This document shows positions 1 to 16,148 of a stretch of DNA of 17,384 nt, piece by piece. The translations under genes were made by a program, and so were the position numbers. Source of the stretch: a virus. Taxonomy: Duplodnaviria > Heunggongvirae > Uroviricota > Caudoviricetes. The stretch's first letter is position 1. The number at the start of each line of letters is the position of its first letter. The notes under the pieces were generated by a model that was not told where the DNA came from, did no database searches, and saw only the letters and a list, made by a program, of their open reading frames with translations. Where the stretch lies: IMG/VR virus record IMGVR_UViG_2675903433_000036, positions 1-17,384 of that record, one strand, 5' to 3'.

Positions 1-263
1 CCCCGCCAGAACCACAACAAAGTAATACTCCGGGTCTCTGGTGGCGCTGATTACTGTGCCTTCTCCATCCGACGGCTTCACCACAACAGGTGTGCTCACA
101 TCACCTTCTGCGACAATCGCCTGAATAAGTGCTGCGCCATCATCCGTATACGAAGAAAACGGCCCGCCGTATGGTTGCCATCCTTCACGAATTTTTTGAG
201 CAAGTGCATCAGCAAGGTCTGACGGCGACACCGCCCTGACCACATCGTAGTGTTTAAATGCCA
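1..263 (-). CDS. hypothetical phage late-region protein, N-terminal 87 codons only; the gene runs off the window start
   Basis: Open frame from ATG at 263..261 to position 1 with no stop, translating MAFKHYDVVRAVSPSDLADALAQKIREGWQPYGGPFSSYTDDGAALIQAIVAEGDVSTPVVVKPSDGEGTVISATRDPEYYFVVVLAG. Strong SD (GGGAGGA) about 6 nt upstream on the minus strand. Not in the ORF track, presumably because it lacks an in-window stop. Confidence 0.45.
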
Positions 264-457
264 TGAATCCTCCCGGCCGGGATAATATTGTGAGTAAAAT
301 GAGGAGCGGGCTGAAATCCGGAAGTTACAGGACAATGGCAGAAGAGAGACAACAGCCCGCAATACGAAAAAGGCCGCGCTATTGCGCAGAGTGATTACTG
401 TCGGATATTATTCGCCAGCTGAAATATTACTTCACGTTTTGTTGTTTATTCCTTGCC

Positions 458-487
458 GCCCGCGTCTCCCTGCGCGGGCTTTTTTTG
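458..487 (+). terminator. Rho-independent terminator-like hairpin with T7 tract (plus-strand sense)
   Basis: Stem GCCCGCG (458-464) pairs with CGCGGGC (473-479) around an 8-nt loop, followed by TTTTTTT (480-486). No convincing plus-strand gene lies upstream within the window. Confidence 0.3.
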
Positions 488-497
488 TCCATAAGAA

Positions 498-518
498 AGC
501 CCCTCCGGAGAGGGGCTG
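498..518 (-). terminator. hairpin with weak U-tract on the minus strand, convergent with the 458-487 hairpin
   Basis: GCCCCTC / GAGGGGC stem around a CGGA loop; on the minus strand it is followed by TTTCTTAT. Could end read-through from the tRNA-like element. Confidence 0.25.
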
Positions 519-753
519 GAGAGTGGCGCTATGTGCCATTGCATGGTGCCGGGTGCCTCCCGGTGAATTCAGTACCAGCACCTGAATCCGCGATTATCCC
601 ATATACCTACTCGCTGATTGCCCCTCCGCACAGGGGGATTCACCATGCCAGTTTCTTTTAACAAACTCCCCGCAAACCAGACAACAGTCAACCGCCTGAA
701 TTGTGAGACATTTAAAAAAAAGGCCCGCAAAAGCGAGCCAGGGAAAATAAGTG

Positions 754-829
754 TGGCGCGTTGTACTGGATTCGAACCAGCGACCTGGCGATTATGCGTC
801 GCTCGCTCTCACCACTGAGCTAAAGGGCC
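754..829 (-). tRNA. tRNA-Ile2-like (CAU anticodon, ileX/ileZ-like) element, probably a degenerate pseudo-tRNA
   Basis: Minus-strand 76-nt sequence GGCCCTT-TA-GCTC-AGTGGTGA-GAGC-G-AGCGA-CGCATAA-TCGCC-AGGTC-GCTGG-TTCGAAT-CCAGT-ACAACGC-G-CCA has canonical D and T arms (GTTCGAATCC) and a CAT anticodon. The 3' acceptor strand ACAACGC does not pair with the 5' GGCCCTT, and position 33 is G rather than the near-universal U. Confidence 0.45.
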
Positions 830-863
830 GGGAGCAGAATAATAACGGTCCGTAATTAATTCC

Positions 864-892
864 GCAATAAAAAACCCGCTCAATGGCGGGTT
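864..892 (-). terminator. Rho-independent terminator downstream of the Q-like gene (tR'-like by position)
   Basis: Minus-strand sequence ACCCGCCATTGAGCGGGT hairpin followed by TTTTTTATT, about 85 nt after the stop at 976. Confidence 0.5.
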
Positions 893-975
893 CTGGTAAA
901 GTTCATGCGCTTGGTTCGCCTCGCGATACAGCTTTGCGAAGCGTACCGGAATTGAAGCAGTTTATGCGTAAAAAA

Positions 976-1518
976 TCAAGCTATTTTTTGAGCAAATGAT
1001 TCTCGCATGGGAATATATAGGACATACTCAGCAACTGCCAACCAATTAGCAATTCGCTTTTCGCATGTGCTAAAACACCACTCTGGGTACTGTTCGTTTA
1101 ATAACTCGGCCATCCTTCTCTTACTCATCCCTCGCCCCACATAACGCTGACTCAGGACATTTAGTAGTCCTGGATGATCCGCCAGAACTTCACCTATAAC
1201 ACTATCAATTTTTAGTGCCTCTGCATCAGTGCAGTGAGTTAACCAGCTTTTTTGCTTTCCTTCGATCATCTCACGCAAAAATGCTTCCAACTCTGGTTTA
1301 TCAATTCCCGCTTTTTTCAATCTGCGCAGGGCTTCATTGATGGCTGTTTTTGTCAATTTTTTGGATGTCAGCAACTGATTAAACATATTCCCTGACCTGC
1401 CGCCACCAATGTACGACCAGCGCCCCCACATACGCAGTTTCCCCTGTATCCAGATGCTTTCCAACGTATTGAGTCGAAGATGTTCTCCGCTTTTTCCGGT
1501 ATTTGTTGGGTAAATCAT
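976..1518 (-). CDS. putative late-gene antiterminator (Q-like); assignment by position only
   Basis: 180 aa from the internal ATG at 1518..1516 (MIYPTNTGKSGEHLRL...), which overlaps the upstream stop as ATGA. The ORF-track version (220 aa) would overlap the upstream gene by 120 nt. It is the last gene before a terminator and the tRNA-like element, the position Q occupies in lambdoid and Stx-type phages. No motif recognised with certainty. Confidence 0.4.
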   Translation of the reverse strand: MIYPTNTGKSGEHLRLNTLESIWIQGKLRMWGRWSYIGGGRSGNMFNQLLTSKKLTKTAINEALRRLKKAGIDKPELEAFLREMIEGKQKSWLTHCTDAEALKIDSVIGEVLADHPGLLNVLSQRYVGRGMSKRRMAELLNEQYPEWCFSTCEKRIANWLAVAEYVLYIPMRESFAQKIA

Positions 1519-1805
1519 AGAATGCCTTTCTCCCTCCAGATTTCCTGTGTGCGGAAAACGCCCTCCGCGTGCATCAGGCGCAATTCTTCTTTGGTGTAAT
1601 CGCTGGTTTTTACCCGCCCGTCGATTAAATCGTGGCACGAGCTACAGGCAATTGCCGCCTGCATATCGTGTGGTTTTGTCGCTGTTCCACACGTCCCCGC
1701 CAGCCTGTAATGCGCCAGCACGGACGTTTCGGGATTGTGATTGCAGTAGCCAGGAATTCTGACTGTACACATCTGACCTTTTGCCGCTTTACGTAAATCC
1801 ACCAT
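1515..1805 (-). CDS. Cys-rich small nin-region protein (DUF1364/YbcO-like, putative metal-binding)
   Basis: 96 aa (MVDLRKAAKGQMCTVRIPGYCNHNPETS...CSSCHDL...) with five spaced Cys residues. Start overlaps the upstream stop (TAATG); stop overlaps the next ATG. Confidence 0.6.
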   Translation of the reverse strand: MVDLRKAAKGQMCTVRIPGYCNHNPETSVLAHYRLAGTCGTATKPHDMQAAIACSSCHDLIDGRVKTSDYTKEELRLMHAEGVFRTQEIWREKGIL

Positions 1806-2404
1806 TACGCAAACTCCAGTAGCTGCGCGGCCACATTTTCGACTTCCTCCGGAGAGGAAAATTTACGGAACAGGATCCAGTTCCACAGCACATTCAGTAC
1901 AGATTTATAAACCTGCTGAAACACGGTTTCGTCCATGTTCGCAAATGCGATAGATTTTGCCCTGCGCCCACGACTACCGTCCGGATAAAAATGCTCGGTG
2001 TAAAATCCGGCCTGAATGGTTACCCACTCGCGGAAAGCCTCAAACGACTTTAGCAATGCCGTATCCCGGGTTCTGCGTGTCGCAACGGTATTCAGATATT
2101 GCTCTGCGGCATCACTCAGGGCTGGAGTATGTTCCCGACCTACTGACTCGCACAGGTAATCAACGAATTCTGAAACCAGTTTTCGTTCTCGAGGCGTGAT
2201 CGCCCCACCGACCGGAGTCCAGTAATCGAATCCCAGTTGCAGGAGTTTGAAAAAACGCTTGTGGAATGCGTAGTTACGAACGCGCTTAAAATCAGCGTGT
2301 ATCCACTCGCCTATTTTGATTTGATGCAGAAAATCACAACTCTCCGGTGTCGCCGGGAGAAGTAAACCAGAAGAAGTTTGTTTGACCAGTTGTATATGCG
2401 CCAT
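1805..2404 (-). CDS. nin-region protein of unknown function (DUF1367/YbcN-like, tentative)
   Basis: 199 aa from ATG at 2404..2402 (MAHIQLVKQTSSG...) with SD GGAG 8 nt upstream. The ORF-track start at 2416 is a TTG without SD. Confidence 0.55.
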   Translation of the reverse strand: MAHIQLVKQTSSGLLLPATPESCDFLHQIKIGEWIHADFKRVRNYAFHKRFFKLLQLGFDYWTPVGGAITPRERKLVSEFVDYLCESVGREHTPALSDAAEQYLNTVATRRTRDTALLKSFEAFREWVTIQAGFYTEHFYPDGSRGRRAKSIAFANMDETVFQQVYKSVLNVLWNWILFRKFSSPEEVENVAAQLLEFA

Positions 2405-2460
2405 TGCTATCTCCAATGGCGCTGTAGGTTGCCAGTTGTTCAGGCTGGCTTACGAATTAT

Positions 2461-2637
2461 AACTCATTCCCGAACCACCTTGAAACCGAGCCTTTCCAGG
2501 TATTCAATGAATGCCTCGATAGATAAAATCACATGATCATCAGGAATTAACGTTGTGTAGATAACGTCTCCATTCTCAACGCGCACAGCATAGAGGCCAT
2601 TTTCACTAAAAATTTCACGCAATTCTTCGATTTTCAT
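2461..2637 (-). CDS. small hypothetical protein (58 aa)
   Basis: ATG at 2637..2635 with SD GGAAGGA upstream; MKIEELREIFSENGLYAVRVENGDVIYTTLIPDDHVILSIEAFIEYLERLGFKVVRE, stop TGA. Not in the ORF track. Confidence 0.4.
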
Positions 2638-2794
2638 CAACAGAATCCTTCCAGATAAATAGCACTCCCCTGTTCGGGGTCCATCCCTCTTCTCCCTGCG
2701 CGCTAATTAAGTGAATCGATTCTAGTCAGGCATACCAGCTAATCAACAAACCCTGGTCGGTTAAATAGAAGGATTGGCTAAAATTTACCCCCAT

Positions 2795-2822
2795 TAAAAT
2801 AAAAAACCCGCCGAAGCGGGTT
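2795..2822 (-). terminator. Rho-independent terminator of the hok transcript
   Basis: CCCGC-CGAA-GCGGG hairpin (2807-2820); on the minus strand it is followed by TTTTTTATTTTA. Lies about 70 nt downstream of the hok stop. Confidence 0.55.
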
Positions 2823-2890
2823 AAGTGCGGGTGCGTTGAGGATGCCTGACACATCAGAGGTGGCGAGGGATTTCTCCCCCGCCTGGTCTC

Positions 2891-3046
2891 TTACTCCTCA
2901 GGTTCGTAAGCTGTGAAGACAGCGACCTCCGTCTGGCCGGTTCGGATTCGTACCTCGCAGAGGTCTTTCCTCGTTACCAGTGCCGTCACTATGACGGTTA
3001 AACAGATGACGATCAGGGCGACTAACATCGCCTTTTGCTGCTTCAT
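2891..3046 (-). CDS. hokD: Hok/Gef-family membrane toxin (type I toxin), HokD/RelF-like
   Basis: 51 aa, MKQQKAMLVALIVICLTVIVTALVTRKDLCEVRIRTGQTEVAVFTAYEPEE: single TM helix plus the conserved C-terminal hok motif, nearly identical to my recollection of RelF/HokD. SD AAGGAG 9 nt upstream of ATG at 3046. The 70-aa ORF-track version is an in-frame upstream extension. Confidence 0.85.
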   Translation of the reverse strand: MKQQKAMLVALIVICLTVIVTALVTRKDLCEVRIRTGQTEVAVFTAYEPEE

Positions 3047-3225
3047 AGCCTGCTTCTCCTTGCCTTTCGGCACGTAAGAGGCTAACCTACGTTTGTGAAG
3101 CATAGATTGGGCCTCAGATTAATGTTAAGCGTCTTGCAGGACGCGTAATGTTAACTGGGGCTTTTCTCTATCTGCCTTTTGGTGTTCATGCCTGAGGCAG
3201 ATAGCCTCAAGCACCCATTATGATT

Positions 3226-4347
3226 TTAACCAAAGTCTTTGTATCTATAAAGAGGCACAATATTACTCGATATATCATCATGTGTGCGCCTTATTCCAAA
3301 CATTTTGGAAACAAAGCGTTCCCTCACTCCCGACATATCCAGTATCTGCTTCCAAGAAGATATATCCAGCAATTCAACTGCACAGGAAAGTAAGCGAGGT
3401 TTTTCCTCAGGGATTAACTCATCCCCCATCTCTCCTTTAATCGTCCCTCTTTTATTTAGATGGATAAATCCCGTTCTCATTTGTTGTGGCGTAATCAGCC
3501 CCAAAACCGTAGCACGATAAATACACATGCGAAGACTGATTTTCCATCGTTCTTTGAAATTAATTAGTGCATTCCAGTCAAGATGCGATCCTCGCATTTT
3601 AGGAAATTCATTAACGAACGAAACTCTAGGTACAAGGAATGCGCTCGAAAAATAATCCGCATGATGTTCTGTAATTTTATCCCCTGTTATAATCCCTTCA
3701 TGCAAAACAAGATGCCCCAGTTCATGACCGAGATCTGAGCGAAATCGACACACACTCTTTTTCGCGGAATTTCTAATTATCAATGGGCGTTTACTATTAA
3801 TAGTAAACGCATCAATACGATCATCCACGCCAGATACATGAGCAACAACAACCCCAATACTTTCCACGAAATTAACCATTGAAGATATCGGTCCCAGCCC
3901 CAAACCCCAATACCTTCTACAGGCCTCGGCAATTCTTTCAATATCTTCATCGGAGTTCAAAGGTAATCCGGACGTATCAGGAAAGTTCAATTCTGGAAGA
4001 ACTATTTCTGTTTCCAAACACTTTACAAACTGCTCCAAAATTTCAGCTCGAGCCAGAATACTATTAGTTAAGGACTGCGTCCTTGATCTCTTGCTTCTGA
4101 AATGGCAGTTCTCGCTGTCTAATGGTGATTTCCTTCCAGTGAAGAAAAACGACTCTTTAACATCCAGATAATCTGCAAGAGCTGTCAACATCTGAGATGA
4201 AGGGGGATAACCACGCTCTAACTTGTTTATAAATTGCCGAGTCACCCCCAAAGCAGTAGCAAGCTCTTCGCCCGTAACCCCTTTAGCCTGACGAGCTAAT
4301 TTTAAGCAGTCACCACGATAATTACCTATAGAATCAAATAGTTCCAT
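3226..4347 (-). CDS. HTH_XRE DNA-binding domain fused to ImmA/IrrE-type (COG2856, HExxH) zinc metallopeptidase, with a C-terminal domain of unknown function
   Basis: N-terminal XRE helix-turn-helix (LKLARQAKGVTGEELATALGVTRQFINKLERG), a central HELGH zinc-binding motif (SDLGHELGHLVLHEG) and about 150 further residues. Start is uncertain (ATG 4347 or 4374, GTG 4383), none with a strong SD; the frame overlaps the upstream gene by 14-50 nt. GC about 37-40 percent against about 48-52 percent in the flanks. Confidence 0.75.
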   Translation of the reverse strand: MELFDSIGNYRGDCLKLARQAKGVTGEELATALGVTRQFINKLERGYPPSSQMLTALADYLDVKESFFFTGRKSPLDSENCHFRSKRSRTQSLTNSILARAEILEQFVKCLETEIVLPELNFPDTSGLPLNSDEDIERIAEACRRYWGLGLGPISSMVNFVESIGVVVAHVSGVDDRIDAFTINSKRPLIIRNSAKKSVCRFRSDLGHELGHLVLHEGIITGDKITEHHADYFSSAFLVPRVSFVNEFPKMRGSHLDWNALINFKERWKISLRMCIYRATVLGLITPQQMRTGFIHLNKRGTIKGEMGDELIPEEKPRLLSCAVELLDISSWKQILDMSGVRERFVSKMFGIRRTHDDISSNIVPLYRYKDFG

Positions 4348-4984
4348 ATTTATCACTATCTGCTTTTTTCGCATTCTTAACACGCCGCTGCAAATTCAGC
4401 GGTGGTGTTTCCACGGCCTCTGGCAATACGTCAGTATTAGCTGCTTGTACTGGAGCATGGACTTTAGACACCAATTCGTATCTACTCACTACATTATTTG
4501 ATGAATCAAAACCTATCAGGGCTAAAAGCCACGTTGGAGGTTCAATATCTTCATCTTTTTTATTTGCAGATGGTAATTTTTCAGCCAGAACACGCCATGT
4601 AACATCATGTTCAAAATTAACATCATCTTCAAAAAGAGATAACTGACGACACTCAACATCATTTTTACATAAGCGATGTTTCTTTTTTGGTGAATCCAGT
4701 TTATCGGTCACAAACTGTAACGGCACCCTGTTCAGGGTAAACACAAAATTCAGAGGTGTTGAAAGAATCGCCACTCCTTTGAGTTTTTTATGATTTTTTA
4801 CAAGAAAGTTTTTTATCCATCCATAGGCCCTACATCCATTAATCCAGTTATCATCATACTCATGGCGATGGAACCATAATTCGCCAAGTACGTTAGCAAA
4901 TTGCTGAAGAAGATTGATAACAGATTTTTCATCCAAACAAGGATTGATTTCAAAACACGGTTGGAGATTCTGTTCAGACGGCAT
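4334..4984 (-). CDS. hypothetical protein (216 aa), first gene of the AT-rich two-gene cassette
   Basis: ATG at 4984..4982 with SD AGGGA about 7 nt upstream (MPSEQNLQPCFEINPCLDEK...); the ORF-track start at 5026 is a TTG. No motif recognised. AT-rich like its partner. Confidence 0.65.
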   Translation of the reverse strand: MPSEQNLQPCFEINPCLDEKSVINLLQQFANVLGELWFHRHEYDDNWINGCRAYGWIKNFLVKNHKKLKGVAILSTPLNFVFTLNRVPLQFVTDKLDSPKKKHRLCKNDVECRQLSLFEDDVNFEHDVTWRVLAEKLPSANKKDEDIEPPTWLLALIGFDSSNNVVSRYELVSKVHAPVQAANTDVLPEAVETPPLNLQRRVKNAKKADSDKYGTI

Positions 4985-5138
4985 AAGGTATCCCTCTCTC
5001 TTAAAACTCCGCTCATCTTTACGCAAAATTTTATTTTTGTAAACCTAATCTTTAGGGGATTTCACGAATTCGTCAACCAGTCGAACAAACTTTAACCACA
5101 ATACATATTTATCTACATTGATATGTGTATCGCTAACA

Positions 5139-5369
5139 CTATTGTGGGCATTCAGCTAGTATTACCAAGCCTTCAGGTGCGCGAAGTTGTTCCGCACAGT
5201 GCAGCAGCGCATCAGTCGCTTCCTTAAGCGTCACAGTGTCGCCATCACCCAGTCCTGCAATTTTTGCGTGCCTGACAAACGCCGCGCAAAGGTCGTTAAA
5301 CGCCCCTGCCCGCACATCCGCCAGGAAAGCGTTGGCAGCAGCCAAATCCTGGTAGTCAATCCCGCTCAC
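5139..5369 (-). CDS. hypothetical small phage protein (76 aa)
   Basis: GTG start at 5369 with a strong SD (AGGAGGTG) and a GTGA overlap with the upstream stop; MSGIDYQDLAAANAFLADVRAG... Confidence 0.5.
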   Translation of the reverse strand: MSGIDYQDLAAANAFLADVRAGAFNDLCAAFVRHAKIAGLGDGDTVTLKEATDALLHCAEQLRAPEGLVILAECPQ

Positions 5370-5788
5370 TGTGCCACCTCCTGAAAATTACCCTGATAAA
5401 ACGCCAGTGCGCGCTGCATAACTTCGCTCTTCCGGCACTCGCTACAGATTATGTTCTGACGCCTGTCGTAGCGGCGTATTTCTCCGTCTGGTAATGACCA
5501 GATAAGGTCCGGATCATCCACAGATGTTTTCTTCAGATTTGCCCTTGAGAGTTTTTTGCGGGCGTTTTGCCAGTCCTTACGCGCCTGTTCAGACGGGAAT
5601 AACCCGTAACCAGAGTTGTATACATCGCCACTGGCAACCAGCTCTCTGGCGAGAACACTCATCAGATATCTTGTCGCACCTGTTTTCTCTTCCAGTTGCC
5701 GTAACGTCTCGCGGCCGCTCAGACGTACAAGTTCAACAACCTGCCCTTTAATTTTTTCCCGCTCTTCTGGTGTAAATACTTTTGCCAT
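5366..5788 (-). CDS. hypothetical phage protein (140 aa)
   Basis: ATG at 5788..5786 with SD GGAGG 7 nt upstream (MAKVFTPEEREKIKGQ...). The ORF-track start at 5803 is a TTG abutting the upstream stop. Confidence 0.55.
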   Translation of the reverse strand: MAKVFTPEEREKIKGQVVELVRLSGRETLRQLEEKTGATRYLMSVLARELVASGDVYNSGYGLFPSEQARKDWQNARKKLSRANLKKTSVDDPDLIWSLPDGEIRRYDRRQNIICSECRKSEVMQRALAFYQGNFQEVAQ

Positions 5789-5803
5789 GGGCGCCTCCGG
5801 CAA

Positions 5804-6574
5804 TCACTTTTCCGATGCAACACGGCGGGAAAAATCAGTAATCTGTCGAACAATATCCCGATGCTTGTTCAGCTCCCGCAGCGCGGCGCAGACACGCTCC
5901 CACTTCTGGACATGATTTTTCGCCCGACGCAGTTCACGGTTTGCCATATGCAGCGATGACAAAATCAAATCATCAGATCGCGTTGCAGTAAACGATGGCA
6001 GCGACTGCACAATGTCCGCCACAGTTTCTGTTTTAATATCTTCCTGTGTTGCAGCCTCCTGTACTGGTAACGCAACACATGCAGGCTGAGGAAAGGCTTT
6101 ACCATCAGTTTCCGCTACCGATGCTGCTTTCGGCTCTGCTGGTAAATTATCGCCCGGTATGCAGTAACGAAATTTACCGTTCTGATTAACGCGTGCCAGC
6201 CGCCCCGTTGCGGTTACCACCGCCAGCGTGGAAGCAACCTTGCGAGTACTGACGCCGAACTTACCCGCCAGTTCCTCACACGTTTTAGCACCATCCTGAC
6301 CGATAAACTCAACCATCATGTCTGCGGTAACTTTTGGAGCGACCTCTTCGGTTACCACATCCGGCGCTTCAGGTTGTAGTGCCTGCCCTTCGGTTACCCC
6401 GGCTTCACCTTCGACAGCCAGAAACCAGGTGTGACCCGTTTTATCAACAACGCCATTTTTTTTGAGTTCCCACAGTTCGTTAAGAACTTCTTCACGGCTG
6501 ATATCAAGCCGCGCCGCCAGTTCAACAGAATTGGCTTTTCCCATCGCTTTCAGTGCATGCAATACAGTTTCCAT
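5804..6574 (-). CDS. hypothetical phage protein with two winged-helix-like segments (DUF1627-like, tentative)
   Basis: 256 aa with SD GAGGT upstream. Two similar segments ([28 protein letters not shown] and [27 protein letters not shown]) and a basic, possibly coiled C-terminus. Confidence 0.55.
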
Positions 6575-6599
6575 CGAAAATTTACCTCGTCAAAAATTC

Positions 6600-7340
6600 T
6601 CACATACCCTGACGTCCAACGTTTGACCGCCAGCTCTCCCAGTTAAAATTCACCCAACGCCCGCCGTTCATGGTCATGCGATCCATAATCCTCTCGCCGA
6701 GCAATGTTTTCATGGCCTCATAGCTCAGGTTTGTCAGCATCCCCACGCTGCGCATCGACGCTGTCCGGCGATCAACAATCTGGTGCAGCACCACCTGCTC
6801 GTTTTTTGTCTCGCGCTGAATGCCAATTTCATCAAGAACCAGCAGATCCACTTGGCACAGTTCCCGCAAAAATTTTTCGCCTGATTGCCCGTCGTCATAG
6901 CTGGCGTGTAGAGCACTCATGACATCAGCCACGGTAACCACAATCACTGTCTGGCCATCTTTTAGCAGGCGATTCCCGATAGCCGCCGCCAGATGGTTTT
7001 TTCCGGTACCAGGTTTTCCGCTGAACGCAAAATTTGTATACCCGGTCATCAGTTCATCGGCGATGGATTTCGCCTGGCTTAACGCGTATCGCTGGCCGTC
7101 GTTCTGCACCTGGTAATTCGCAAACGAGCATTTACGGTGCAACGGCTGGATGCCAGAGCGATTCAGAATTTTTTCCACCCGCAACTGACGATTCAGGCGG
7201 TTGATCTCCTCGCAACGTTTCTGTCCTTCAGCAAGTTGCCACTCACGCCACTCCGCAACCGTTCTGAATGGGGCGGTTACATGTGGTGGGGTCAGTCTGC
7301 GGATACGCTCCAGAACGCCGCCTGTCGCAATATTTTTCAT
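6600..7340 (-). CDS. ydaV: DnaC/IstB-like AAA+ ATPase, replicative helicase loader (P-like role)
   Basis: Walker A GKPGTGKNHLAAAIG and Walker B LLVLDEIG; 246 aa, directly downstream of the O-like gene. Symbol from recalled Rac synteny and length. Confidence 0.8.
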   Translation of the reverse strand: MKNIATGGVLERIRRLTPPHVTAPFRTVAEWREWQLAEGQKRCEEINRLNRQLRVEKILNRSGIQPLHRKCSFANYQVQNDGQRYALSQAKSIADELMTGYTNFAFSGKPGTGKNHLAAAIGNRLLKDGQTVIVVTVADVMSALHASYDDGQSGEKFLRELCQVDLLVLDEIGIQRETKNEQVVLHQIVDRRTASMRSVGMLTNLSYEAMKTLLGERIMDRMTMNGGRWVNFNWESWRSNVGRQGM

Positions 7341-7346
7341 GGTCTG

Positions 7347-8204
7347 TTACCCCCTGAAGCCTGGCGGGATCGCACTATCCGGTAGCGAAACGGTGTTAAC
7401 CTGTCGGAGTAACGTCTCAGGTCGAACACCTTTCGGCGCGAACAGGCCCTGGTATTCATTGGCGATACTGTGTCGAATCACCTGCTCGGGTGTAAAACCC
7501 TGCTGGCGGAATTTTTCCAGCTCCCGTATCGCCCCGTTAGCGCCCTGCTCCGTTCGAATCGGTTTTCGCAATGCCTGGCGAAATTCAACCCACTCACGCC
7601 AAAGCGAGACAGAAATCCAGTTCGGCAAAGCAATATCCAGAGGGTCAAACTTTTTGACACCTCGATTCCCCCGGGGGGGATTTAGGGGGGGATCTGTTTT
7701 TAGATCTTTATCTGTATCTTTATTAGTTGCCTTTGTGTTGACATCATGTTCAAACACCACTTCAACATCTGTTTGAACACCTGTTAAATTTCTCTCTTGT
7801 TTTTTTTGAACATCTGCTTCCTTTCTGCTTCTTCTGGCCTGAACAGATGCTTTTCCTGCGGCTGATTTTTTGGTTAATTTTTCCCTGACTGATGCCAGAT
7901 CTTCCTCAATCCGAAGATGCACCCATTCCTCGCCGTTATCGCAAAAAAACTCCTGCAAGGATGGTTCAACATCAGCCCATCGCTCGTTAGTCAGACGGGC
8001 AATTTTTGCCAGTCTGTTTTTAGGTATTGGCTTTCCTGTTTGCCAGTAATTGAACATCAGCAACAAATACGCACCATGCTCCTCTGCTGACAAATGCATG
8101 GTGTCAGCCAAGTAATCAGCTATGTACAGTTGCATGTATGGTAATGCGGCCATAATTGCCCCGTATGATGCTGCCCGGTGGCTTAGAATAAGCACAAACA
8201 GCAT
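7347..8204 (-). CDS. ydaU: replication initiator, O-like (YdaU/DUF1376-type), containing the candidate origin
   Basis: 285-aa ORF. The start is uncertain: ATG 8204 has no SD, alternatives at 8153 and 8135. A Lys/Glu-rich central linker is encoded by an AT-rich repeat-laden segment. Symbol from recalled Rac length and synteny. Confidence 0.65.
   Translation of the reverse strand: MLFVLILSHRAASYGAIMAALPYMQLYIADYLADTMHLSAEEHGAYLLLMFNYWQTGKPIPKNRLAKIARLTNERWADVEPSLQEFFCDNGEEWVHLRIEEDLASVREKLTKKSAAGKASVQARRSRKEADVQKKQERNLTGVQTDVEVVFEHDVNTKATNKDTDKDLKTDPPLNPPRGNRGVKKFDPLDIALPNWISVSLWREWVEFRQALRKPIRTEQGANGAIRELEKFRQQGFTPEQVIRHSIANEYQGLFAPKGVRPETLLRQVNTVSLPDSAIPPGFRG
7667..7852. repeat. iteron-like direct and inverted repeats plus C5/G7/G7 homopolymer tracts inside the O-like gene; candidate replication origin
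   Basis: CCCCCGGGGGGG at 7668-7679 and GGGGGGG at 7685-7691; palindrome GATCTgtttttAGATC at 7691-7706; ATCTTTAT twice; ATGTTCAAACACC and CTGTTTGAACACC; GAACATCTGCTT and GAACAGATGCTT. Confidence 0.45.
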
Positions 8205-8216
8205 GGAAACTTTTGC

Positions 8217-8639
8217 TTAATGAACAATGACAGAATCTTCGGAAGACCCGCCGCCGCTGAAATGCGCTTTCCGGTAAACGGCCTGGACTGCATCATCATG
8301 CGCATCAATTGCCGTACTCAACGCTTCCTGCGCCGCCAGTAATGCACGGCGTTCCAGGGTATCGAAGATGCAGAGTCGGTGACGCAGCTCGCGCGGAATA
8401 ATTGCCAGAACCGCAGGGATCAGTTTCTGAATTTTTTCCCTTTGCGCTTTCGTTTCACCTTTCAACCAACGGTGATAGATATTCTGCTGATTGTTCCAGT
8501 CCTTGCCTGGTACCAGGGGCAATTCGCCGCCCCCCTGGCGCAGATATTCTTCAGTAATTGCGTTAGCGACCCACGCCTGCCCTTTTTCGGCTGCCAGGGC
8601 TAACAACACTGATTCGATGTGCTCATGCCTGATTTTCAT
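8217..8639 (-). CDS. ydaT: YdaT-like protein (reported toxin partner of YdaS in Rac-type prophages); occupies the cII position
   Basis: 140 aa, SD AGGAG 8 nt upstream of ATG 8639; overlaps the Cro-like gene by 17 nt. Symbol from recalled length and synteny. Confidence 0.6.
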   Translation of the reverse strand: MKIRHEHIESVLLALAAEKGQAWVANAITEEYLRQGGGELPLVPGKDWNNQQNIYHRWLKGETKAQREKIQKLIPAVLAIIPRELRHRLCIFDTLERRALLAAQEALSTAIDAHDDAVQAVYRKAHFSGGGSSEDSVIVH

Positions 8640-8898
8640 GAATCAACTCCTGTGCATTTGGTGTGTTAGCCTTACATCCAACAGGTAAACCATCGGTCGG
8701 ATTCGGGTAGATATCAGGCCGGAGTTCATGAGGTGTAACCTCGAAATTCGTTACTTCAGCAACACGTAATGCTTTTTCAGGGCTGAATCTTTCATAGCCC
8801 CCCAGCACTCGACTTACATGCACCTGAGATAAACCCGTTAGCTTCCCAAACTGTAACTGGGTGATATGTTTCTCTTTTAAATAGTCTCTTAAGTTCAT
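8623..8898 (-). CDS. ydaS: Cro-like HTH regulator (YdaS-type)
   Basis: MNLRDYLKEKHITQLQFGKLTGLSQVHVSRVLGG is an HTH. ATG at 8898 with SD GAAGG; first gene of the rightward operon, divergent from the repressor. The ORF-track TTG start at 8904 is less likely. Confidence 0.65.
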   Translation of the reverse strand: MNLRDYLKEKHITQLQFGKLTGLSQVHVSRVLGGYERFSPEKALRVAEVTNFEVTPHELRPDIYPNPTDGLPVGCKANTPNAQELIHENQA

Positions 8899-8928
8899 AG
8901 CCAACCTTCTACGTTATGCCTCGAACAA

Positions 8929-8957
8929 ATATTAGCTCCACTAATTTTAAAGATCAA
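8929..8957 (-). promoter_or_regulatory. pR-like sigma70 promoter for the Cro-like operon
   Basis: Minus strand reads TTGATC (-35), a 17-nt spacer, then TAATAT (-10); predicted TSS near 8921, about 24 nt before the ATG at 8898. Confidence 0.5.
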
Positions 8958-8971
8958 CAGTCAGACTATCT

Positions 8972-8999
8972 TTGATAATATTGGTAAAACAAATAAACT
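8972..8999 (+). promoter_or_regulatory. possible pRM-like promoter giving a leaderless or near-leaderless repressor mRNA
   Basis: TTGATA (8972-8977), 16-nt spacer, TAAACT (8994-8999), ATG at 9006 with no SD, as for lambda cI from pRM. Confidence 0.3.
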
Positions 9000-9005
9000 C
9001 TATGT

Positions 9006-9467
9006 ATGAAAAAAACACGCGAAGTGATTGCAACTCCAGAAGCGAGCAAGAATTTAAAAGCCGCATGGAATGCAAGAAAAAAAGAGCTGAAGCTGACTCA
9101 AGAGCTGGCGGCTGAGTTGTTGGGATTCGAATCTCAAGGCACCGTTAGCCAGTATCTGAACGGCAAGATACCGGTAAATACCGACGCTGCGCTAAAATTT
9201 GCGGCTCTGTTAAAGGTAAAACCAGAGGACATTCGAGAAGACCTTAAAGACTTAATGAATTATGTAAGATCATCAGATACTTATGATGATAGCTTTTCAG
9301 GCAAAGGATGGAGGCTGGTCAATGAAGAACAGGCAGAGTTACTTAACCTCTTCGAGATTCTACCTGCGTCAGAAAAAGCCAAACTCCTTAACCAGCTACG
9401 TGGACTAAACAAGCTCTATGAGGAAGCCTTCGAGAACATGCTGGCACTAAAGAAACGTAACCAGTAG
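9006..9467 (+). CDS. racR: prophage repressor, XRE-family HTH, non-LexA-like (RacR-like)
   Basis: 153 aa; HTH LTQELAAELLGFESQGTVSQYLNGK; no peptidase S24 domain. Divergent from the Cro-like gene and followed by a terminator. Symbol is by analogy. Confidence 0.6.
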   Translation: MKKTREVIATPEASKNLKAAWNARKKELKLTQELAAELLGFESQGTVSQYLNGKIPVNTDAALKFAALLKVKPEDIREDLKDLMNYVRSSDTYDDSFSGKGWRLVNEEQAELLNLFEILPASEKAKLLNQLRGLNKLYEEAFENMLALKKRNQ

Positions 9468-9493
9468 CCACCACTCACTACCCTATCCACAAC

Positions 9494-9523
9494 AAAAAAA
9501 CCGACGTCTTAGTCGGTTTTTTT
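9494..9523 (+). terminator. Rho-independent terminator after the repressor gene (A-tract / hairpin / T-tract, potentially bidirectional)
   Basis: AAAAAAA-CCGAC-GTCTTA-GTCGG-TTTTTTT. Confidence 0.6.
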
Positions 9524-9548
9524 GTGCCATAACTTCTGCAAATCAGCT

Positions 9549-9649
9549 GTGTAACTAATATTTTTCCCTTGAAAAAACATTTACATAGTTACTAAATCAA
9601 AAGCATCATACTCCATACTGTTGACTTAAAATATCCGTGTTACTAATAT
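9549..9649 (+). promoter_or_regulatory. strong pL-like promoter with three copies of a GT(T/A)ACTAAT operator-like motif
   Basis: -35 TTGACT (9621-9626), 17-nt spacer, -10 TAATAT (9644-9649). Motif copies: GTGTAACTAATAT (9549-9561), GTTACTAAAT (9588-9597), GTGTTACTAATAT (9637-9649, overlapping the -10). Confidence 0.55.
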
Positions 9650-9720
9650 CCTCATCAAGAACAGCACGGCGCTGTAGGTTTTAGTTCCGCCACCCGGCGT
9701 TAAGGGGAAATGAGGTCAAC

Positions 9721-9873
9721 ATGGATACTATCGATCTTGGCAACAACGAATCTCTGGTATGTGGCGTGTTTCCCAATCAGGACGGCACATTCACCGCCAT
9801 GACGTATACCAAAAGCAAATCGTTTAAAACCGAAGCTGGCGCACGTCGCTGGCTTGCCAAAAATACCAGCTAA
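9721..9873 (+). CDS. small early-left protein (50 aa; YdaF/YdaG-like by position)
   Basis: SD GAGGT 6 nt upstream of ATG 9721; MDTIDLGNNESLVCGVFPNQDGTFTAMTYTKSKSFKTEAGARRWLAKNTS. Not in the ORF track. Confidence 0.55.
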   Translation: MDTIDLGNNESLVCGVFPNQDGTFTAMTYTKSKSFKTEAGARRWLAKNTS

Positions 9874-10070
9874 ACAATTTATTGGATTAATTCAATATTC
9901 TTGCTGTAGGGGTATAGCCGAGGCCACCAAAGCCCGGAGGTGGTGAAATAAAACCGGGCACAACACGAAGGCGCATTTCCGATATCCATAAAGAGTCGGT
10001 CTTGTCTGTTAAATTTAAATGGTGGGAGTGCGCCTCCGGTTGTAAATAACGACATTGCTGTGTGTAGTCT

Positions 10071-10115
10071 TGGCGGCATCAGTTCTACTCCGTGGCTGCC
10101 CTGCCGCCCCTTTTT
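10071..10115 (+). terminator. terminator-like long-loop hairpin (tL1-like) within a 400-bp structured leader
   Basis: GGCGGCA (10071-10077) pairs with TGCCGCC (10103-10109), followed by CCTTTTTAAAG. Confidence 0.3.
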
Positions 10116-10578
10116 AAAGTGAATTTTGTGATGCGGTGAATGCGGCTGAGCGCACGCGGCACAGTTAAAAGCATCAGTGTTATGGGTGGATTATCCGGCG
10201 TTAATTGTTAACTGGTTAACGTCACCTGGAGGCACCAGGCACCGCATCAACAAAGTTCACTTCAGTGATGAAAGGTGAGAGAAAATGATGGATGTAGCTA
10301 TTGAAAACCAGAACGGGTGGAATTATAGTGCACCTGCACCTCATAAAACGGGTGCCGGGATTTGCACCCCGATGATCACTAGAGCGCATAACCGCGCCAA
10401 AGCGTTTTTTTTATGCGTAAAGCGCAGCCACATTCAGATTATGGTGGGGCGTATGGGGCCGTTTTCGGGCGGGCCGGATTCTCTAGTGACCGGTAGTGCA
10501 AACCCTGTACGTCTCACCACCCATGAGATTTGCACCTCCGGTGGTGAGTTTACCAACTTATCACTAGAGGCTGCCATC

Positions 10579-11133
10579 ATGGCTACTATCCCTACCCTTT
10601 CTCACCCTGACGTAACCATCGAAAATGGTCGTGCTGTCACTACGTCTGTTGCAGTTGCAGAGTTTTTCCGCAAGCTGCATAAAAACGTCATTCAAAAAAT
10701 TGAAGCTCTGGAATGTTCCTCAGAATTCACTGAGCTTAATTTTAAGCCAAGTGAATACACCGACTCAACCGGGCGCAAACTCCCAATGTACCAAATCACC
10801 AAAAACGGCTTCGTTTTCCTGGTGATGGGTTTCACTGGCAAAAAAGCCGCTGCATTCAAAGAGGCCTACATCGCTGAGTTCGACCGCATGGAAGCAGAGC
10901 TACGCCAGAATAATACCACTCCCACAAACAAAATCATTCCGGGCGATGGGCGCACTCTGGTTGTTCGCTTCGACAAATTCGGCAACGTCGAATTCACTGA
11001 AACCGTTCCTGATGGCGCTCTCGTCTGTACCCTGGACACTTTCCGCCTTTATCTGGAGAAACAGGGCTGGACTCTTGTAAACCGAAGCGCAATTAAAAAT
11101 ATGACCGTCGAGCAGTTGCTGAGTATTAAATAG
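10579..11133 (+). CDS. Rha-family phage regulatory protein (Phage_pRha domain)
   Basis: Matches my recollection of the Rha domain: AVTTSVAVAEFFRKLHKNVIQKIEAL...ELNFKPSEYTDSTGRKLPMYQITKNGFVFLVMGFTGKKAAAFKEAYIAEFDRMEA. Internal ATG 10579 with SD AGAGG is preferred; the ORF-track start at 10285 adds about 98 compositionally odd, repeat-containing residues. Confidence 0.65.
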   Translation: MATIPTLSHPDVTIENGRAVTTSVAVAEFFRKLHKNVIQKIEALECSSEFTELNFKPSEYTDSTGRKLPMYQITKNGFVFLVMGFTGKKAAAFKEAYIAEFDRMEAELRQNNTTPTNKIIPGDGRTLVVRFDKFGNVEFTETVPDGALVCTLDTFRLYLEKQGWTLVNRSAIKNMTVEQLLSIK

Positions 11134-11179
11134 TTTTCTGGAATTTTCTTAATACGAGAAATTTATTAAGGAGATAATT

Positions 11180-11401
11180 ATGATTGCTCATCACTTCGGA
11201 ACTGATGAAATACCACGTCAGTGTGTGACTCCTGGCGATTATGTTCTTCATGAAGGTCGGACATATATCGCCTCGGCAAACAATATTAAAAAGCGAAAAC
11301 TTTATATTCGTAGCCTGACTACAAAAACATGCATTTCTGACTGCATGATTAAAGTCTTCCTCGGCCGTGATGGTTTACCTGTAAAGGCGGAGTCATGGTA
11401 A
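11180..11401 (+). CDS. kilR: KilR-like small protein (host-killing / cell-division inhibitor of Rac-type prophages)
   Basis: 73 aa with strong SD AAGGAG. Symbol from recalled Rac length and position. Confidence 0.5.
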
Positions 11402-11571
11402 TGACTAAGAAAATGAAATGTGCTTATCACCTTTGCAATAAAGAAATTGAAGAAAGCAAAATCATTACAAGACCACTTCATTTCATGCGTGGAGTTATAC
11501 CAACGACGGAAATGAAAAAATATTGTAGTGAAATCTGTGCCGAAAAAGACCAGATGGCACACGAACTTTAA
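11401..11571 (+). CDS. ydaE: small zinc-finger-like protein (YdaE-like)
   Basis: 56 aa, ATG overlapping the upstream TAA (TAATG); [56 protein letters not shown] with a CxxHxC...CxxxC pattern. Not in the ORF track. Confidence 0.5.
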   Translation: MTKKMKCAYHLCNKEIEESKIITRPLHFMRGVIPTTEMKKYCSEICAEKDQMAHEL

Positions 11572-11651
11572 TTAACTGACTATTCGAAACTGAATTTATG
11601 CCAGCAATGGCAGGGGTTCGCTCAACCTTAAAATAGTTATGAGGTTTATCA

Positions 11652-13682
11652 ATGAGTACTGATAAAGAAAATTACGCTCTGTATTGCGACGCGAAAAATG
11701 ATAAAACCAGAAAACGCCTCGGCATCAAAGGCGGCTTTTTCTGGACAGAGGCAAAAAAACTTTCTGTTGCGGTTTTACGCTGCATTGCTGCAATGGACGA
11801 TGCCGGATTTGACGAAGAGGATTTTAAAAAACCCATCCGCGTCCATTTACCCGTTGTGAATGACCTTCCACCGGAAGGTGTGTTTGATACTGAATTCTGC
11901 AACCGATACGAAAAAGGCGGAGAAGATGGTATCACAATGATACTTATCGCGCCCTCTCCCTCCGTGCAGGAGAAACCAGCCAGTACTGACAATACCAACG
12001 TCAACGGCGAAGACATGACGGAGATTGAGGAGAATATGCTCCTGCCGGTTTCTGGTCAGGAGCTGCCCATTCGCTGGCTTGCGCAACACGGCAGCGAAAA
12101 ACCAGTAACGCACGTTGCACGGGAAGAACTTCAGGCATTACATATAGCACGGGCGGAAGAACTGCCGGCTGTTACTGCCCTGGCCATTTCTCACAAAACA
12201 AAGCTGCTCGACCCGCTGGAGATTCGCGACCTTCACAAACTGGTACGCGACACTGACAAAGTTTTCCCTAATCCCGGTAATTCAGACCTGGGACTGATAA
12301 CTGCTTTTTTCGAGGCATACCTGGACGCTGACTACACTGATCGGGGTCTGCTGACAAAAGAGTGGATGAAAGGAAATCGTGTTTCGCGTATCACCCGTAC
12401 GGCTTCCGGTGCAAATGCCGGTGGCGGGAACAAAACCGATCGCAATCCGAATTTAGTACACACCTTCGATACGCTGGATGTGGAGATTGCAGCAGCCACA
12501 CTTCTGATGGATTTTAATATTTATGAAATTCCGGGCAGCGTTTATCGTCGCGCAAAAGAAATCGTCCTGAAAAGAGAAAGTCCGTTCAAAGAATGGTCCG
12601 CAGCACTTCGCGCAACCCCGGGTATTCTGGACTATTCCCGCGCCGCTATTTTTGCACTTATCCGGAGCGCTCACCCTGAGTTTTATCACTACCCGGGACG
12701 CCTTCAGGGGTATATCAACGCCTACTTAACGGAGACTGATCACGAGAACCCCAGCAAGGAAACTCTCACTGCTGCACGACATACACCGGAAAAAGATATC
12801 CTGGAAGAGGTTAACCGCGAACTGGCTGCTAAGCAGGAAACAGAAGAAGAAAATGATGAAGAAAAACCGCAACCATCTTGCGCAATGGCAGATGAACAGG
12901 CAACGGCTGAAACAGTGGAACCGGATGCAACTGAACATCATCAGGACACGCAGCCGCTGGATGCTCAGTCACAGGTAAATTCTGTTGATGCGAAATATCA
13001 GAAACTGCGGGCAGAACTCCATGAAGCCCGGAAAACCATTCCGCCCAAAAATCCTGTCGATGCCGACAAATTGCTGACTGCCTCTCGCGGAGAATTTGTT
13101 GAAGGGATTAGCGACCCGAATGATCCGAAATGGGTTAAGGGAATTGAAACCCGAGATTCTGTGAACCAGAACCAGCCCGAATCGGAACAAAACAACCAGA
13201 AAGCGGAACAAAACAGCCCAAATGCACAGAAAAACGAGCCAGAAACGAAACAATCTGAACCAGTAGCGCAACAGGAACCGGAAAAAGTCTGTGCCGCCTG
13301 CGGTCAGAGCGGCGGCGGCAACTGCCCTGATTGTGGCGCGGTGATGGGCGACACCACGTATCTGGAAACCTTTAATGAAGAAAATCAGAATGAATATCAG
13401 GAAAAAGGTCTGGAGGAAATGGAAGGTGCTGAACATCCGCACAAGGAGAACGATGGCAGCGATCCGCATCGCGATTGCAGTGATGAAACTGGCGAAGCAG
13501 CAGCTTCATCATTAGAAAAACTCGACTGGAAAAGACAAGTGGTGATTGCAGCGGTTTACGGTTTATGTGCAAATCCTGCGGGTATAGCCTCAGCGCCATT
13601 AATTCCGGGTATTGCAATGATGATTGCAAACAAACTTGAAAATTTTGGGGTGACGGATGATGAGTACATGCCCAATTTTTGA
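11652..13682 (+). CDS. large acidic protein of unknown function upstream of the Red genes (zinc-ribbon motif; possibly related to the RecE N-terminal region)
   Basis: 676 aa with SD GAGGT. Long Asp/Glu/Gln-rich low-complexity stretches, a [16 protein letters not shown] zinc ribbon and a hydrophobic C-terminal segment ([33 protein letters not shown]). Sits where racC-recE lie in Rac. No nuclease motif recognised. Confidence 0.7.
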
Positions 13683-13956
13683 TCGCATTGAAGAGCAGGC
13701 ATGGTCACGCCACTACCAGCAAATCGTTTGCGAAGAAAAAGAAACGGCGCTGGCGGACGACCTGGAAAAAGGTCTGCCCCAGCACCTGTTTGAATCGCTC
13801 TGCATCGACCATTTGCAACGCCACGGTGCCAGCAAACAGGCAATCAGTCGCGCATTTGATGACGATGTTGAATTTCAGGAACGTGTGGCGGAGCACATCC
13901 GGTACATGGTTGAAACCATTGCTCGTCACCAGGTTGATATTGATTCAGAGGTATAA
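13657..13956 (+). CDS. gam: Gam, host RecBCD nuclease inhibitor (lambda GamS-like)
   Basis: 99 aa, near-identical over most of its length to recalled lambda Gam (…RHYQQ…[24 protein letters not shown]…[12 protein letters not shown]…[12 protein letters not shown]…HQVDIDSEV). Confidence 0.9.
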
Positions 13957-13961
13957 AACGA

Positions 13962-14747
13962 ATGAGTACAGCACTTGCAACACTGGCCGGGAAGCTGGCT
14001 GAACGCGTCGGCATGGATTCTGTCGACCCACAGGAACTGATCACCACTCTTCGCCAGACGGCATTTAAAGGTGATGCCAGCGATGCGCAGTTCATCGCAT
14101 TGCTGATCGTCGCCAACCAGTACGGCCTTAATCCGTGGACGAAAGAAATTTACGCCTTCCCTGACAAGCAGAACGGCATCGTTCCGGTGGTGGGCGTTGA
14201 TGGCTGGTCCCGCATCATAAATGAAAACCAGCAGTTTGATGGCATGGACTTTGAGCAGGACAATGAATCATGTACATGCCGGATTTACCGCAAGGACCGT
14301 AATCATCCGATCTGCGTTACCGAGTGGATGGATGAGTGCCGTCGCGAACCATTCAAAACCCGAGAAGGCAAAGAAATCATCGGACCATGGCAGTCGCATC
14401 CCAAACGGATGTTACGGCATAAAGCCATGATTCAGTGTGCCCGTCTGGCCTTCGGATTTGCTGGTATCTATGACAAGGATGAAGCCGAGCGCATTGTCGA
14501 AAATACCGCATGCACTGCAGAACATCAGCCGGAACGCGACATCACTCCGGTTAACGATGAAACCATGCAGGAGATTAACACTCTGCTGATCTCCCTGGAT
14601 AAAACATGGGATGACGACTTATTGCCGCTCTGTTCCCAGATATTTCGCCGCGACATTCATGCATTGTCAGAACTGAAACAGGCCGAAGCAGTGAAAGCTC
14701 TTGGATTCCTGAAACAGAAAGCCGCAGAGCAGAAGGTGGCAATATGA
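13962..14747 (+). CDS. bet: Bet (Red-beta) single-strand annealing protein
   Basis: 261 aa, near-identical to recalled lambda Bet ([89 protein letters not shown]...). Confidence 0.92.
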
Positions 14748-15424
14748 CACCGGACATTATCCTGCAGCGTACCGGGATCGACGTGAGAGCTATCGTACAG
14801 GGGGATGATGCGTGGCACAAATTACGGCTCGGCGTCATCACAGCTTCAGAAGTTCACAACGTGATAGCAAAACCCCGCTCCGGAAAGAAATGGCCTGACA
14901 TGAAAATGTCCTACTTCCACACCCTGCTTGCCGAGGTTTGCACCGGTGTGGCTACGGAAGTTAACGCTAAGGCGCTGGCCTGGGGAAAACAGTACGAGAA
15001 CGACGCCAGAACCCTGTTTGAGTTCACTTCCGGCGTGAATGTTACTGAATCCCCGATCATCTATCGTGACGAGACTATGCGCACCGCCTGCTCTCCAGAT
15101 GGTTTATGCAATGACGGCAACGGCCTTGAGCTGAAATGCCCGTTCACCTCCCGGGATTTCATGAAGTTCCGGCTCGGTGGTTTCGAGGCCATAAAGTCGG
15201 CTTACATGGCCCAGGTGCAGTACAGCATGTGGGTGACGCAAAAAGATGCCTGGTACTTTGCCAACTATGACCCGCGTATGAAGCGTGAAGGCCTGCATTA
15301 TGTCGTGGTTGAGCGGGATGAAAAGTACATGGCGAGTTTTGACGAGATGGTGCCAGAATTCATCGAAAAAATGGACGAGGCACTGGCTGAAATTGGTTTT
15401 GCATTTGGGGAACAATGGAAATGA
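14744..15424 (+). CDS. exo: Exo (Red-alpha) 5'-3' dsDNA exonuclease
   Basis: 226 aa, near-identical to recalled lambda Exo ([16 protein letters not shown]...[36 protein letters not shown]...); ATGA overlap with bet. Confidence 0.92.
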
Positions 15425-15651
15425 GCGCAGCCATAAAGCTCACAGGAGAAAAACCAGTGCTATACACAAAAGTCAAACCATGTCCGTTTTGTGGTTGTCC
15501 ATCAGTAACGGTGAAAGCCATTTCAGGATATTACCGCGCAAAGTGTAACGGATGCGAATCCCGAACTGGCTATAGTGGAAGTGAAAAAGAAGCACTCGAA
15601 AGATGGAATAAACGAACTACTGGAAATAATAATGGAGGTGTTCATGTATAA
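15415..15651 (+). CDS. ralR: Lar/RalR-like restriction-alleviation protein (zinc-ribbon, CPFCG motif)
   Basis: [47 protein letters not shown] matches my recollection of the Lar family. Start at 15415 or 15421, the latter overlapping the exo stop. Confidence 0.5.
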
Positions 15652-15853
15652 AATTACTGTCACTATTGAAAAGGAAGGTGGCACTCCTACTAACTGGACA
15701 AGATATTCAAAATCTAAATTAACGAAATCAGAATGCGAAAAAATGCTCTCTGGGAAAAAAGAAGCAGGCGTTTCCAGAGAGCAGAAAGTAAAACTGATAA
15801 ATTTTAATTGCGAGAAACTTCAGTCCTCGAGAATTGCATTGTATTCAAATTAA
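15644..15853 (+). CDS. ydaC: small hypothetical protein (YdaC-like, 69 aa)
   Basis: ATG 15644 preceded by GGAGGTG; [35 protein letters not shown]... AT-rich. The ORF-track 92-aa version begins upstream in the overlap with the Lar-like gene. Confidence 0.45.
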   Translation: MYKITVTIEKEGGTPTNWTRYSKSKLTKSECEKMLSGKKEAGVSREQKVKLINFNCEKLQSSRIALYSN

Positions 15854-16147: not shown

Positions 16148-16148
16148 T

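Follow-up and report, generated by a model that had tools for sequence, protein, structure and literature searches.

A hok/mok/sok-type toxin–antitoxin module with an atypical hok promoter-like site in a lambdoid Escherichia coli prophage

Described hok/sok systems and the window module

The hok/mok/sok (parB) locus of plasmid R1 mediates post-segregational killing and partially excludes phage T4 (cited in PMC8621323), and its mechanism, in which a refolding mRNA and an antisense RNA control a toxic peptide, is described in PMC9841398. [quoted passage not shown] The chromosomal loci hokA, hokB and hokC, on the other hand, were earlier found not to mediate post-segregational killing (summarised in bioRxiv 10.1101/2025.08.07.668861). 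Modules of the hokD/hokW type are annotated routinely and a close relative has been characterised, so the kind of module described here is already known; what it offers is mainly a set of corrective results, and little by way of discovery.

We analysed a stretch of 17,384 nucleotides, hereafter the window, which comprises positions 1 to 17,384 of the IMG/VR virus record IMGVR_UViG_2675903433_000036. From 3216 to about 2797, its minus strand very probably carries a complete hok/mok/sok type I toxin–antitoxin module of about 420 nt that belongs to the hokD/hokW subgroup. The module sits in the nin region of a lambdoid E. coli prophage and is read in the same direction as the early-right operon. 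All elements are intact: both reading frames are open, and both Shine–Dalgarno (SD) sequences, tac, ucb, dcb, fbi, the terminator and the sok promoter are present. Element names follow plasmid R1 (PMC9841398), and mRNA positions are counted from G3216 as +1:

2797-3216, minus strand: predicted full-length hok mRNA, about 420 nt (conservation borders in the entropy profile, alignment A2, fold z = −8.9)
3205-3216, minus strand: tac (translational activator), GGGUGCUUGAGG, nt 1-12 (pairing with fbi; invariant in 97 homologues)
3188-3214, minus strand: predicted nascent metastable hairpin, nt 3-13 with 19-29 (−19.6 kcal/mol, folds of the first 30-52 nt)
3168-3204, minus strand: 5′ leader hairpin, 10 bp, nt 13-22 with 40-49 (fold, Rfam, covariation)
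3155-3161, minus strand: ucb, or anti-SD box, GCCCCAG, nt 56-62 (full-length fold, leader folds, Rfam consensus)
3112-3115, minus strand: mok SD, GAGG, nt 102-105, 8 nt ahead of the mok ATG
2891-3103, minus strand: mok reading frame, 70 aa, which includes hok in the same frame (ORF list); AUG at 3103, nt 114
3078-3082, minus strand: dcb box, GCCUC, nt 135-139 (145-nt fold, Rfam consensus structure)
3061-3056, minus strand: hok SD, AAGGAG, 9 nt ahead of the hok ATG
2891-3046, minus strand: hok toxin gene, 51 aa, MKQQKAMLVALIVICLTVIVTALVTRKDLCEVRIRTGQTEVAVFTAYEPEE (Pfam HOK_GEF, 1.8e-23); AUG at 3046, nt 171
2862-2883, minus strand: 3′ UTR stem-loop, nt 334-355 (fold; helix 17, with two compensatory pairs)
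2829-2841, minus strand: fbi (fold-back inhibitory), CCUCAACGCACCC, nt 376-388 (12 bp with tac, one bulged C)
2797-2822, minus strand: intrinsic terminator, AACCCGC-UUCG-GCGGGUU then a U-run, nt 395-420 (terminator scan)

The earlier note on this DNA had proposed a hokD/relF-like type I toxin of the Hok family with a strong SD and its own terminator, and the sequence agrees on each count. Similarity to Hok peptides is clear on alignment: window Hok shares 50 of 51 residues with K-12 HokD, 46 of 51 with HokW (933W/Sp5), 42 of 51 with HokC and 23 of 52 with R1 Hok, and the Pfam match, made on the 70-aa translation, covers profile positions 1-42 of 42. The hok SD stands where listed, and the GC-rich terminator hairpin proper (2822-2805) is followed by a T-run. 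The upstream extension from 3103, which had been suggested to be mok-like, is confirmed as such by its in-frame 70/51-aa layout, which is that of the annotated mokW/hokW and mokC/hokC pairs; Mok is identical to MokW at 62 of 70 positions and to MokC at 50 of 70. The mok SD and ATG are kept in nearly all of 97 homologues, with nucleotide diversity (pi) of 0.005 at the SD. A PADLOC search with Hok and Mok gave no match.

Set beside the hokW-mokW-sokW modules of the Stx2 phages 933W and Sp5 (VT2-Sakai), the window module has 93.7% nucleotide identity from +1 to fbi. Both are prophage-borne, and mokW, hokW and sokW are annotated in 933W and VT2-Sakai with the same 70/51-aa layout and the same Sok position as in the window. 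The differences lie in 5 of the 51 Hok residues (I9V and the C-terminal TAYEPEE versus VDYESEK), in the Sok 5′ tail with mok codons 3-5 (GUGAAGCAUAGAUUG versus GUUCAGCAUGGAUUG) and in the GC-hairpin terminator, which is present in the window and missing from 933W. The settings also differ, the 933W module lying beside ea22-like early-left genes and the window module in the nin region upstream of Q.

K-12 hokD of the Qin prophage (relF, the third gene of relBEF) has the same hok SD, coding sequence, 3′ UTR, fbi and terminator as the window and likewise lies upstream of Q in a lambdoid prophage. Its neighbours are rem, DUF968 and ydfT, whereas those of the window module are DUF1367, DUF1364 and DUF1133; upstream it has RelBE where the window has a RosmerTA pair. 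Plasmid R1 shares the element order and geometry (−10, 6 nt, +1 G), including a tac of the form GG(G/C)GCUUGAGG at the 5′ end, a mok SD GAGG around nt 102-107, a sok promoter that overlaps dcb and an fbi just ahead of the terminator, and the predicted conformers are the same (PMC9841398). At the nucleotide level, however, R1 aligns with the window only in short leader blocks, and it is plasmid-borne whereas the window module is prophage-borne. The K-12 hokC (gef)/mokC/sokC locus has an in-frame mok, the same tac sequence and a Sok architecture similar to that of the window, but its 3′ end is interrupted by IS186, leaving it without fbi, and it belongs to the chromosomal backbone and not to a prophage.

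The sole Tyr codon of window hok (codon 47; 2905-2908, minus strand) is TAC followed by G. This UACG context is that of the TadA A-to-I recoding of Tyr to Cys reported for hokB, which according to the same preprint extends to hokC, hokD and hokE (bioRxiv 10.1101/2025.08.07.668861). The UACG motif is also present in 933W hokW (GACTACGAA).

Conserved predicted fold of the hok mRNA and proposed control

The leader is intact, since Rfam model RF01794 matches it over its full length (3216-3041, all 157 model positions) with a score of 120 bits, the gathering threshold being 59. For the 420-nt RNA, the minimum free energy comes to −172.6 kcal/mol, with the z-score given above taken against 100 dinucleotide shuffles. 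In the full-length fold, tac pairs with fbi with a probability of about 1.0, in the minimum free energy structure and in the ensemble alike, and ucb pairs with the mok SD region (nt 100-106); this predicted structure corresponds to the closed, untranslatable form of the R1 model. When leaders of 62-145 nt are folded in isolation, they are predicted to take the open form, with tac/ucb pairing, the 5′ leader hairpin, a hairpin of the Sok stem and pairing of the mok SD with dcb, and this open fold equals the Rfam consensus structure. The nascent metastable hairpin has a counterpart in R1, and the 3′ UTR stem-loop is probably, after the R1 example, the protective 3′ hairpin of the processed mRNA (PMC9841398).

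A fold-back-structured leader had been anticipated for this locus, and the predicted tac–fbi pairing and the full-length Rfam match bear this out. The 9-bp leader hairpin named at the same time is real, and its arm CTATCTGCC was correctly placed at 3168-3176; the partner arm GGCAGATAG lies at 3196-3204 and not at 3197-3205, and the helix extends to 10 bp.

RF01794 carries the name 'sok', and we considered its match as a marker of the Sok strand. We rejected this use, because what the model describes is the leader in the hok sense, up to the hok ATG. Automated annotation that takes RF01794 as 'sok antitoxin' would misplace 'sok', on the wrong strand and with the wrong length.

Conservation was followed in homologues collected by an IMG/VR pattern scan with the hok SD and start, which gave 120 loci; 96 unique modules entered the entropy profile and 97 distinct modules the alignment A2. 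Across the 96, conservation sets in exactly at 3216 (+1) and runs as far as the terminator, with unrelated sequence on either side. When the full-length structure of the window is laid on A2, 96.2% of cells are paired, compared with 35-42% for slid partners, and 12 pairs have changed on both sides compared with 5.3 ± 1.8 in shuffles (97 modules); because a single member of a set of close relatives supplied the structure, these figures are supportive, not independent proof. The 5′ leader hairpin has two covarying pairs, one changed from A-U to G-C in 13 sequences and the other from C-G to U-A in 3. The tac/fbi helix (helix 1) is paired in 100% of the 97 homologues, with tac invariant and pi of 0.025 in fbi. 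In the wider family, complementarity of the 5′ and 3′ ends is kept by compensatory differences, as in hokB (GGGUGCCUGAGA with UCUCAUGGCACCC) and R1 (GGCGCUU with AAGCGCC). The sequence elements, their conservation and the predicted pairings are what is shown for the window module.

On the model of its homologues, plasmid R1 hok/sok and phage Sp5 hokW-sokW, we propose that the window module encodes a membrane toxin that would be silenced by fold-back of its mRNA and by Sok. A stable hok mRNA of about 420 nt would begin at G3216, and the 5′ metastable hairpin would fold on it during synthesis. In the finished mRNA, tac would pair with fbi and ucb would sequester the mok SD, leaving a molecule that is neither translated nor bound by Sok. 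Slow trimming from the 3′ end would then take off fbi, letting tac pair with ucb and exposing the mok ribosome-binding site together with the Sok target hairpin. For as long as it is made, the short-lived 71-nt Sok would pair across the mok start, and the duplex would be destroyed. Were Sok synthesis to stop, as might happen when the element is lost or the prophage induced, mok would be translated, with translation of hok coupled to it, and the 51-aa Hok peptide would insert in the inner membrane and kill or lyse the cell. Processing of the mRNA 3′ end, cleavage of the Sok–hok duplex by RNase III, toxicity of Hok and its neutralisation by Sok have experimental support in the relatives R1 (PMC9841398) and hokW-sokW (PMC8621323). 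From these relatives we infer the transcript ends of the module, its processing, its toxicity and its biological role, which may be in prophage maintenance, in help with lysis on induction, or both.

The tac/ucb switch was sought by folding mRNAs truncated from the 3′ end. Across these truncations there was no clean flip: the probability of tac/ucb pairing reached at most 0.42, at one end point, and the metastable hairpin or residual fbi pairing was dominant at most end points. Energy minimisation by itself thus lends the switch no support, and this step is put forward by analogy only.

The Sok antisense gene and a hypervariable patch

The earlier note had left it as a question whether a Sok-like antisense promoter survives. 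At the level of sequence it does, with the −35, spacer and −10 identical to those of 933W sokW, and the antisense Sok gene survives with it on the same grounds:

3060-3088, plus strand: sok promoter, TTGCCT (3060-3065), 17-nt spacer, TAACCT (3083-3088) (identity with 933W sokW)
3095-3165, plus strand: predicted Sok RNA, 71 nt (transferred from the annotated sokW coordinates; ends putative)

The identity with 933W extends over the 41 nt upstream of Sok, promoter included, and the Sp5 (VT2-Sakai) locus matches the window just as 933W does. Both promoter hexamers are conserved in 97 of 97 homologues, in which the +1 G of Sok is also invariant or nearly so. The −10 TAACCT is weak by consensus, matching it at 3 of 6 positions, and a generic sigma-70 scan left the sok promoter below threshold; we accept this promoter by homology with sokW, not by consensus. 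The predicted Sok starts with a single-stranded 5′ tail of 14 nt, which is followed by a long hairpin and a U-tail (GGGGCUUUU at the end), an architecture that it shares with SokW, SokC and SokB, and its fold is −29.2 kcal/mol (z = −5.2). It is complementary to the mok SD and start region. Sok can now be placed at 3095-3165 on the plus strand; it is unlisted in the annotation of a near-identical RefSeq locus.

The segment opposite the Sok 5′ tail is hypervariable. Over the 13 variable sites of nt 106-121 (window 3096-3111), pi is 0.43, compared with 0.037 at hok third-codon positions, and nt 106-127 occur as 20 alleles among 97 sequences. The patch consists of the mok SD-to-ATG spacer and mok codons 2-5, some 13-20 nt facing the Sok 5′ tail, and is embedded in a module that is otherwise 92-100% conserved, with the flanking mok SD, ATG, Sok +1 and sok promoter essentially invariant. 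The loop of the target hairpin (nt 117-125), as folded in the open leader, is complementary to Sok nt 1-6. The window allele, CUUCACAAACG, is rare, occurring in 2 of the 96 unique modules sampled. Only four pairs of modules from the same isolate genome are present in the IMG/VR sample; in three of them the Sok-tail region differs and in one it is identical.

These observations suggest, tentatively and with somewhat less than an even chance in our estimation, that the patch is a specificity cassette in which diversifying selection or recombination keeps co-resident hokD/hokW modules orthogonal. If so, protection by each Sok would be limited to its own hok mRNA. The simpler alternative for the same variation is that constraint has been relaxed on a leader peptide that has no function. 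The patch provides a cheap, testable clue to how many near-identical type I modules might be present together in one cell.

Another Sok allele, from other modules, is AACGGCAAATC. Separately, a second allele class in IMG/VR (L029, L033, L041, L050, L056, L104, L119 and L125) has the same tac, hok and fbi, with the whole Sok stem/target segment swapped for a shorter, unrelated sequence (…GCCCCACCCGACTATAAATCGAAGTGAGGCCCCTATATG…) and a sok −35 nearer to consensus (TTGACC).

The hok promoter, the upstream slot and rival readings

The gene pair and the promoter-like site upstream of +1 overlap:

3223-3251, minus strand: hok promoter-like site, TTTATA (−35), 17-nt spacer, TAAAAT (−10, 3228-3223) (promoter scan)
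3226-4383, minus strand: RmrA (PADLOC, 6.4e-107; HTH_3 plus Peptidase_M78)
4334-5026, minus strand: RmrT, a 230-aa ORF (PADLOC, 1.7e-18)

The upstream cassette (3226-5026, minus strand) is a RosmerTA pair; a Pfam search with the 230-aa RmrT ORF gave no match. In the near-identical RefSeq locus, from E. coli OkiPb01679 (99.7%), the gene order is cI-like, cro-like, ydaT, replication genes, DUF1627, DUF977, two genes and hokD, followed downstream by DUF1367, DUF1364, DUF1133 (a Q-like antiterminator) and a tRNA. In BL21, a full-length hok module comes directly after the DUF977 gene, with no cassette between them. In K-12-type genomes, relB-relE stand ahead of hokD, and homology to the window is confined to the part from about 14 nt ahead of the hok ATG onwards, leaving a hokD locus without the hok promoter, tac, ucb, mok start and sok. 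The slot upstream of hok is thus variable and holds cargo that differs by prophage: nothing in BL21, RelBE in K-12 and RosmerTA in the window.

The earlier note had described the toxin as retained downstream of a swapped cassette, and this does not stand, because K-12 relBEF is the truncated form and the window and BL21 are complete. The complete module is the common, ancestral-type state, and the K-12 relBE-hokD arrangement is derived and truncated. K-12 relBEF as the ancestral state was rejected on three grounds: the start of K-12 homology just ahead of the ATG, the completeness of BL21 and conservation from +1. We also rejected a leaderless hokD of the relBEF type as the identity of the window locus, which keeps the full leader and has RmrT and RmrA as neighbours.

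The hok promoter is the one atypical feature of the window module. Most homologues have a promoter of the form GTTAAGTAGAAT, then 6 nt and +1; the window differs upstream, with only the position of the −10 kept. Its TAAAAT is followed by a 6-nt discriminator, CATAAT, and +1, placing it at the same distance from +1 as TAGAAT (most homologues), which it matches at 5 of 6 positions, and TATGAT (R1). The putative −35 matches consensus at 4 of 6 positions. The −10 overlaps the TAA stop of rmrA (3228-3226), and the 3′ end of that gene contains the −35. Autonomous transcription of hok is uncertain, because the promoter is not of the usual type and its −35 lies within rmrA. A terminator scan between rmrA and +1 found none, and read-through from rmrTA into hok is therefore possible.

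These features bear on an alternative in which the module is intact but silent, having lost its native hok promoter after RosmerTA insertion and become an operon passenger and not an autonomous unit. The only source of hok RNA would then be the 3′ end of transcripts reading through from rmrTA or the early-right operon, as for relF in K-12 relBEF, which is co-transcribed (PMC3598666). The upstream sequence, unlike the promoter common to most homologues, the rmrA stop overlapping the −10 and the lack of a detected terminator all fit such an account. Yet the spacing of TAAAAT from +1 is exactly the canonical one, a 17-nt spacer separates it from a −35 that matches at 4 of 6 positions, and the exact rmrA/hok junction flanks are shared by 75 complete genomes. 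Moreover, the whole leader, fbi and the sok gene would be present even on a read-through RNA, leaving the regulation unchanged. We regard the silent passenger as unlikely, though it deserves weight.

Much less plausible is a decaying, functionless relic, as might be supposed from the IS-disrupted or rearranged hok loci of K-12, where hokC has lost its 3′ end to IS186 and hokD its leader, and from the inactivity of chromosomal loci in post-segregational killing assays (bioRxiv 10.1101/2025.08.07.668861). Against decay, every element of the window module is intact, its sok promoter does not differ from that of the functional sokW, tac shows no variation and fbi very little across the 97 homologues, and the nearest characterised relative is functional (PMC8621323); we judge this reading very improbable. 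That a small ORF and some hairpins arose as chance features of intergenic DNA is refuted by the Pfam and Rfam scores and the fold z-score given above, and by the occurrence of the module, at some level, in 4724 of 5426 complete E. coli genomes (about 87%) at 90-99% identity, with a median of 2 copies. The preferred reading is the complete hok/mok/sok module, with its control proposed by homology as set out above.

Just downstream of the hok terminator lies a 58-aa ORF (2464-2640, minus strand), for which Pfam and PADLOC gave no family match; the near-identical RefSeq genome has only a partial hypothetical pseudogene at this place (L001 6663-6740). Elsewhere in the window, other Rfam matches above the gathering score are RalA, the RalR antitoxin sRNA (220 bits; 15650-15828, minus strand), DicF (10059-10109, plus), isrK (10336-10412, plus), C4 antisense RNA (10437-10524, plus), STnc100 (487-677, minus) and a tRNA (764-823, minus). 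From the RalA match it follows that the window carries at least a second RNA-antitoxin system, ralR/RalA, together with several prophage sRNAs.
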